Below, one piece after another: positions 20,513 through 21,064 of a DNA stretch of 64,000 bases. Numbering within the stretch: the first letter of the stretch is position 1; each line of letters opens with the position of its first letter. The position numbers and the translations under genes are program-made. The notes beneath the pieces were generated by a model. It had not been told where the DNA came from. It was given only the letters and a program-made list of their open reading frames with translations, and did no database searches. The DNA is from Escherichia coli (GTDB lineage Bacteria; Pseudomonadota; Gammaproteobacteria; Enterobacterales; Enterobacteriaceae): the NCBI RefSeq assembly GCF_024502345.1, contig NZ_JALDNN010000001.1. The stretch is one strand, 5' to 3'.

Positions 20513-21033
20513 AAGAAAACATCCCCTGAGAGTTTAATTTTCGTCAAGATGCGTGGCGGACAATCCCCTGCCAGCGAAACGTTATCTTCCTGCTCCAGGT
20601 TTGCGGCAATTTGGTGCGTCGCAAAAAAGCAAACGTTTAGCTCCGCGCATACAAAACGGGTGGTAAAAAAAGCAAACGATTATCCGGCGATCATAGCGGC
20701 TTTTTCAACCGAAGTTTGCTGCTTTTTTCTCTTTTATTGTCTTGACGATGAAAAACCAGGCAATTGATGCGCAAACGTTATCGTCGGTGCGCAAGATTGC
20801 AGCGTTATCGAGCCGTATACCGTTCAGGATTGCGATAAAAAATCGTCTGAGATGACAAAAATATTGCGGATAAAAAGTATACTTTTACACTGGCGAAGAA
20901 ATGCCGGTGACATACAATTAAAGCATCAACACCAACCGGAACCTCCACCACGTGCTCGAATGGGGTGTGTTGACGTCGGGGGAAACCCTCCTGTGTACCA
21001 GCGGGATAGAGAGAAAGACAAAGACCGGAAAAC

Positions 21034-21064
21034 AAACTAAAGCGCCCTTGTGGCGCTTTAGTTT
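21034..21064. terminator. palindromic hairpin overlapping the soxR stop codon, T-rich on both sides (possible bidirectional terminator)
   Basis: aaactaaagcgcc cttgt ggcgctttagttt perfect 13-bp inverted repeat. Confidence 0.6.

Follow-up and report, generated by a model that had tools for sequence, protein, structure and literature searches.

The ghxP-soxR spacer of Escherichia coli: the known small RNA gene sraL (ryjA) beside a probable PurR-controlled ghxP regulatory region

The 545-bp spacer between ghxP (yjcD) and soxR of E. coli almost certainly consists of two parts, the sraL/ryjA small RNA unit, with a promoter of the RpoS type and a terminator common to sraL and soxR, and the PurR-controlled control region of ghxP. 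The SraL/RyjA locus is already known, and the original prediction, made by reading the sequence, is correct but ordinary with regard to both the observation and its interpretation. The only new observations are a conserved arrangement of three PurR boxes upstream of ghxP and the missing GST gene of Escherichia, both of which are minor.

Results

The spacer harbors the sraL/ryjA gene

All positions refer to the window, i.e. the whole stretch of 64,000 nucleotides that was analyzed; the features of the spacer are compiled in Table 1. According to the program-made list of open reading frames, ghxP occupies 19163..20512 and soxR 21058..21522, both on the minus strand, which leaves a spacer of 20513..21057 and confirms exactly the boundaries and the length of 545 bp that had been proposed. 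An Rfam scan that took in the whole 64-kb window at the gathering threshold yielded a match to sraL (RF01408) over model positions 1-142 of 142, scoring 150.9 bits, with the gathering score at 39 (E = 4.7e-34). In the curated record of strain MG1655, the ncRNA ryjA (b4459) is located at 4277926-4278066 on the strand opposite soxR, with which it overlaps by 8 nt. This sequence aligns exactly onto 20925-21065, with a single mismatch at 20963, where a G is present instead of an A. Since this change turns a U-A into a U-G pair within a helix, base pairing is kept, and it is the sole difference from K-12 RyjA that was detected. The original prediction had proposed a probable small RNA locus and placed RyjA between soxR and yjcD/ghxP; both the full-length Rfam match and the identical position of b4459 in MG1655 bear this out. 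The locus shares with SraL/RyjA, as known from RF01408, b4459 and Salmonella sraL, the same sequence, length of 141 nt, strand, 8-nt soxR overlap, neighbors, structure, promoter motifs and terminator. A discrete transcript of ~140 nt is known from E. coli and Salmonella (PMC2190706, PMC5389530, PMC3753932). In the PGAP-annotated RefSeq genomes of E. coli that were inspected, only soxR and ghxP are annotated in this region and the sRNA is omitted; its lack in routine annotation represents an annotation gap and not evidence of absence.

The sRNA accounts for only 133 bp of the spacer, and another 8 bp of it lie inside soxR. The spacer had initially been read as one sRNA locus, which holds for the sRNA part but not for the remainder, as ~410 bp are promoter and operator DNA of ghxP and sraL rather than part of a single feature. 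Because these ~410 bp represent the PurR-controlled regulatory region of ghxP, the sRNA alone is insufficient to account for the length of the spacer. The spacer DNA was found in 5420 of 5426 complete E. coli genomes, and a region of 621 bp aligned around it displays 99% identity to MG1655. One record, NZ_CP135688.1 (hit H15; E. coli TUM2820), matches only query positions 238-801, in two places of the record, so that the ghxP control region of this genome may carry an insertion or may have been rearranged close to window position ~20637.

Table 1. Features of the ghxP-soxR spacer and its soxR-proximal border (window coordinates)
Feature	Position	Strand	Remarks
Proximal PurR-like box AGCTAAACGTTTGCTT	20627..20642	-	-130 from ghxP ATG; PWM 18.9 bits
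Middle PurR-like box GGATAATCGTTTGCTT	20670..20685	-	overlaps predicted -10; PWM 11.4 bits
Predicted ghxP sigma-70 promoter	20679..20708	-	TTGAAA, 18 nt, GATAAT
Distal PurR operator ACGATAACGTTTGCGC	20769..20784	-	-272 from ghxP ATG; PWM 18.3 bits; motif in Cho 2011 Table 1
A/T-rich stretch	20795..20889	.	between ghxP operators and sraL promoter; GST-family gene here in most other genera
-35-like element CTGGCGAA	20890..20897	+	-35..-28 of sraL promoter
-10 element TACAAT with downstream TAA	20913..20921	+	-12..-4 of sraL promoter
sraL/ryjA sRNA gene	20925..21065	+	141 nt; full-length match to Rfam RF01408; MG1655 ryjA b4459
SraL 5' domain	20926..20973	+	closed by helix 1 (20926-20932 with 20967-20973); has conserved single-stranded ACCGGAACCUCC
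SraL central domain	20975..21019	+	helices 20979-20981/20986-20988 and 20989-20994/21001-21006 inside 20975-20977/21017-21019
A/G-rich single-stranded linker AUAGAGAGAAAGACAAAGACCGGAAAA	21007..21032	+	precedes terminator
Rho-independent terminator hairpin and T-run	21034..21068	.	13 bp, loop CTTGT; common to sraL (+) and soxR (-)
soxR stop codon	21058..21060	-	within 3' arm of hairpin (ORF list)

Conservation and secondary structure of SraL

To determine the distribution of sraL, one genome per species was searched with a gapped pair of SraL motifs, which resulted in 53 loci. Their titles are nearly all those of Enterobacteriaceae, among them Citrobacter, Enterobacter, Klebsiella, Raoultella, Salmonella, Leclercia, Lelliottia, Cedecea, Trabulsiella, Atlantibacter and Pluralibacter. 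Wherever the contig was long enough, tblastn on these 53 loci placed soxR convergently downstream and ghxP divergently upstream of sraL. Two loci that carry sraL-soxR-ghxP under other names, a 'Bacillota bacterium' MAG (L025), whose soxR and ghxP are 100% identical to those of E. coli, and 'Chryseobacterium sp. 18061' (L050), most likely represent enterobacterial DNA present through contamination during binning or labelling.

The predicted structure was examined on 49 distinct homologues, in which the two fetching motifs are invariant by construction. When the Rfam structure was imposed, 96.2% of the cells contained standard pairs, compared to 40-55% when the 3' partners were slid by 1-3 columns. 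Compensatory changes affecting both sides occurred in eight base pairs, four of which belong to helix 1, three to the central hairpin and one to the terminator. The fold of the homologues obtained independently by RNAalifold nearly equals the Rfam structure. As the fold of the single SraL sequence is not unusually stable (z = -1.51), it is the covariation that provides the structural support. In helix 1, four of the seven pairs display compensatory changes and 97% of the cells are paired, and RNAalifold recovered six of the seven pairs; the 5' domain closed by this helix comprises the '5'-end' region of SraL that has been described to pair with tig (PMC3753932). Within the central domain, three of the six pairs of the helix 20989-20994/21001-21006 are compensatory, and the two other helices are invariant. 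The A/G-rich linker is nearly invariant in all 49 homologues and is located outside both fetching motifs; it might play a role in Hfq binding.

The terminator hairpin and the end of soxR

The two arms of the hairpin (21034-21046 and 21052-21064) are perfectly complementary over 13 bp and enclose a loop of 5 nt. The soxR stop codon is part of the 3' arm. This confirms the claimed perfect hairpin that overlaps the soxR stop. By our own arithmetic, ~5e-5 perfect 13-bp inverted repeats with a loop of 3-8 nt are expected by chance per 545 random bases. A lax terminator scan, which demanded a minimum of only five pairs, was not enriched (one terminator found versus 1.5 in shuffles). Across the homologues, 97% of the hairpin cells are paired. 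T-runs had been proposed for both strands. That of the plus strand (TTTT) is clear, and the scan classified the hairpin on this strand as a terminator. On the minus strand, where the stem itself has TTT at its end and is followed by GTTTTCC, the tail is plausible, albeit weaker, and failed the scan criterion. An overlap of the SraL terminator with that of soxR has been stated before (PMC2190706).

Promoter, stability and targets of sraL

A comparison of 52 distinct upstream sequences revealed two conserved motifs, cTGGcaAA (-35..-28) and TA.A.TTAA (-12..-4), separated by a stretch that is not conserved; TA.A.TTAA keeps a fixed distance from +1 throughout. Judging from these motifs, the sraL promoter is of the RpoS type, with a predicted -10 region followed by TAA and a degenerate -35 region. 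Features of the RpoS type at -35 and -10 have also been noted for sraL by Silva 2013 (PMC3753932), and in Salmonella the level of SraL is ~500-fold lower in an rpoS mutant, a promoter fusion is RpoS-dependent and RpoS was located at the promoter by ChIP (PMC3753932).

Salmonella SraL represses tig, as proven by compensatory chromosomal mutations and gel shifts (PMC3753932), and pairs with the rho leader, which is thereby protected from premature Rho-dependent termination (Silva 2019, in the account given by the review PMC6582626). In E. coli, a Watson-Crick run of 7 bp connects SraL nt 28-34 to tig -29..-23, in agreement with the pairing described before, and a second one connects nt 2-8 to the rho leader at -260..-254. 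Such runs are expected about once by chance (~1.4 times in the case of tig), and these complementary 7-mers were not used as evidence. Pairing of full-length SraL with the tig and rho leaders of E. coli, as predicted by RNAduplex, resulted in long, unrealistic duplexes that were no better than those with shuffled targets. By analogy to Salmonella, tig and rho are putative targets in this E. coli strain as well.

In Salmonella, Hfq stabilizes SraL ~3-fold (PMC2190706). The decay of SraL relies on PAP I, PNPase and the degradosome; the SraL pattern is in addition altered by RNase III (PMC2190706). RyjA of E. coli is polyadenylated and belongs to the transcripts with the strongest increase in a pcnB mutant, with a log2 rise of 3.84 (PMC5389530). 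The literature on Hfq binding by SraL is mixed: in E. coli, the co-immunoprecipitation of Wassarman et al., in the form quoted in PMC2190706, gave no confirmation. A literature search for RyjA in combination with RIL-seq found no report. In Salmonella, Hfq co-immunoprecipitation at early stationary phase yielded 0 SraL reads (PMC2515195).

PurR boxes in the ghxP control region

A position weight matrix for PurR, whose operator consensus is the 16-bp palindrome ACGNAAACGTTTGCNT, was built from the other 27 sites of the Cho 2011 table and scanned over the 64-kb window. The proximal and the distal box (Table 1) are the two highest-scoring sites of the entire window, in this order. The middle box is borderline, as it ranks fifth in the window and the weakest training site scores 12.2 bits. 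A further PurR-like site at 20573-20588 was not counted as an operator, given its score of only 8.1 bits and rank 25 in the window. Within 20350-21250, no promoter-like site other than the ghxP candidate was detected; this candidate has 10/12 matches and would place the start of ghxP transcription at ~20672 (-). No experimental start for ghxP or sraL was identified when the supplements of the Cappable-seq study (PMC4782308) were searched by coordinate prefix, and the ghxP start stays a prediction.

In a scan of 33 species (loci L004-L056), the proximal box was kept in all 33 and the distal box in 31, and the order of three boxes was found in 31/33. In 31 of these species, the distal and the middle box are precisely 99 bp apart, and the distance between middle and proximal box ranges from 43 to 145 bp. 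The PurR ChIP-chip region 4,275,855-4,276,485, designated 'ryjA/yjcD', spans all boxes at a resolution that cannot separate them (Cho 2011, PMC3159470); the table of that study gives one motif per region, here only the distal box, and the proximal box at 20627-20642 is absent from it (PMC3159470). Adenine represses yjcD in a PurR-dependent fashion (PMC3809563). Other PurR-repressed transporter promoters, those of xanP, yieG/adeQ, codBA and tsx, likewise possess one or more 16-bp palindromic boxes and are repressed by exogenous purines (PMC3159470, PMC3809563), but ghxP differs from these by its three conserved boxes and the fixed distance between the distal and the middle one. From their sequence, the middle and proximal boxes might function as operators. 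It is thus conceivable, albeit with somewhat more doubt than confidence on our side, that ghxP is controlled by three conserved PurR operators and not by the single published one, and that the proximal box, which would be located in the transcribed leader, acts as a roadblock.

A GST-family gene between ghxP and sraL in other genera

The distance between ghxP and sraL amounts to 412-454 bp in Escherichia, some Citrobacter and Trabulsiella, and to 1.09-1.33 kb elsewhere. The extra DNA of the genera with the long distance is a GST-family gene of ~222 aa, which is situated between the ghxP control region and sraL (2468-3160 (-) in L039 and 3104-3774 (-) in L006). This gene is present in most other Enterobacteriaceae and absent from Escherichia, some Citrobacter and Trabulsiella. 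No remnant of the GST gene was detected when the spacer of E. coli was searched for one, and window positions 20795-20917 have no equivalent in the spacer of Klebsiella. In Enterobacter cloacae DSM 26481, the gene appears to be split into ORFs of 167 and 87 aa, possibly through a frameshift. The flanks of Salmonella sraL have been given as soxR and STM4267 (PMC2515195), the latter of which we take to be the GST-family gene.

Other features in the window

Beyond soxR, the c-di-GMP phosphodiesterase gene pdeC (yjcC), which is intact in K-12 and O121, is split by a copy of IS1 at 22879-23646 (768 bp; window 22870-23655). The element possesses terminal inverted repeats of 23 nt and the insA/insB ORFs on the minus strand, and a target duplication of 9 bp, AACTGTCGC, is present on either side. 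The C-terminal EAL part of pdeC extends from 21934 to ~22878 and the N-terminal part comprises 23620..24306. An exact direct repeat of 13 nt, GTTTTGTCGAATA, is located at 22720-22732 and 22857-22869, 137 bp apart, in the part of the pdeC fragment that immediately precedes its junction with IS1. The Rfam scan further identified a SECIS_2 selenocysteine insertion element at 375-429 (+) with 87.1 bits, presumably within a formate dehydrogenase gene, and five matches to naRNA4 (CssrE), repeated extragenic palindromes of the REP/BIME type, all of which are on the minus strand (2898-2968, 3011-3081, 13615-13685, 50394-50464 and 55400-55470).

Discussion

We propose that sraL would be expressed during stationary phase and stress from a promoter of the sigma-S type, whose -10 is at 20913-20921, and that transcription would stop at the 13-bp Rho-independent hairpin at which the convergent soxR transcript may end as well. 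The RNA is predicted to fold into a 5' domain with a covarying closing helix, a pair of central hairpins, the A/G-rich linker and the terminator. Its 5' part would pair with the mRNA of trigger factor (tig), by which tig would be lowered, and binding of SraL to the rho leader would prevent premature Rho-dependent termination. Hfq would confer stability on SraL, and the addition of poly(A) would lead to its degradation. In the other part of the spacer, ghxP would be expressed from the promoter at ~20679-20708 (-), flanked and overlapped by up to three PurR operators, which would keep this gene, encoding a guanine/hypoxanthine transporter, repressed in the presence of abundant purines.

The 8-nt overlap with soxR and the perfect palindrome that is common to both transcripts might point to SraL as a chiefly cis-acting RNA, antisense to the 3' end of the soxR mRNA, with RNase III cleaving the duplex and the responses governed by RpoS and SoxRS becoming coupled in this way. 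We regard this as unlikely. In many other genera the sRNA ends at least 30 nt before the soxR stop, and up to ~500 nt in one locus, so that the overlap with the coding region is not conserved. In addition, the covarying 5' and central domains of SraL have no complement in soxR, the arms of the palindrome pair within their own transcript and thus compete with an intermolecular duplex, and targets in trans have been proven by compensatory mutations. Far less probable still is a spacer that consists only of ghxP promoter and operator DNA and the soxR terminator, in which the sRNA match would stem from a degradation product or from a conserved leader with a regulatory role. The ChIP-chip label 'ryjA/yjcD' does cover the whole region and several PurR-like boxes are scattered across 20573-20784; however, the match resides on the strand opposite ghxP and starts 412 bp from the ghxP ATG. 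The sRNA also has a conserved promoter of its own at a fixed distance as well as its own terminator, and it stays beside soxR even where the GST gene parts it from ghxP. Moreover, a primary transcript has been detected in E. coli (PMC5389530), and published descriptions indicate a primary 5' end at ~20925 (+).

We give just as little credence to the notion that the locus encodes a small protein, either from a 26-codon frame, MGCVDVGGNPPVYQRDREKDKDRKTN, inside SraL, which would then have a dual function, or from the spacer ORFs of 62-88 aa. An ATG does occur inside the sRNA, and the spacer contains ORFs of 72, 62 and 88 aa, which the original prediction had already judged unconvincing. That judgment stands, since a Pfam scan of these three ORFs returned zero matches and the ATG within the sRNA is kept only in Escherichia, being CTG in most genera. 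The internal ATG is not preceded by a Shine-Dalgarno sequence, the frame is interrupted by indels that are not multiples of three, and the start of the 62-aa ORF is located upstream of the transcription start. The reading as an sraL/ryjA unit next to the PurR-controlled ghxP region is the one we retain.

In its dependence on sigma-S, its stationary-phase expression, its association with Hfq, its action in trans and its conservation across enterics, SraL resembles SdsR (RyeB) (PMC3753932). However, sequence, locus and targets of SdsR, which represses ompD, are unrelated to those of SraL, and SdsR is therefore a functional analogue and not a homologue.

The present case demonstrates that a real sRNA gene absent from the PGAP annotation of the inspected E. 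coli RefSeq records was located by reading the sequence alone. If the arrangement of three operators holds true, ghxP would be among the most heavily PurR-guarded promoters, and the question would arise of whether a LacI-family dimer without a tetramerization domain may cooperate across 99 bp. SraL itself ties the RpoS stress response to protein folding, via tig, and to the level of the termination factor Rho, all of which has been published before.
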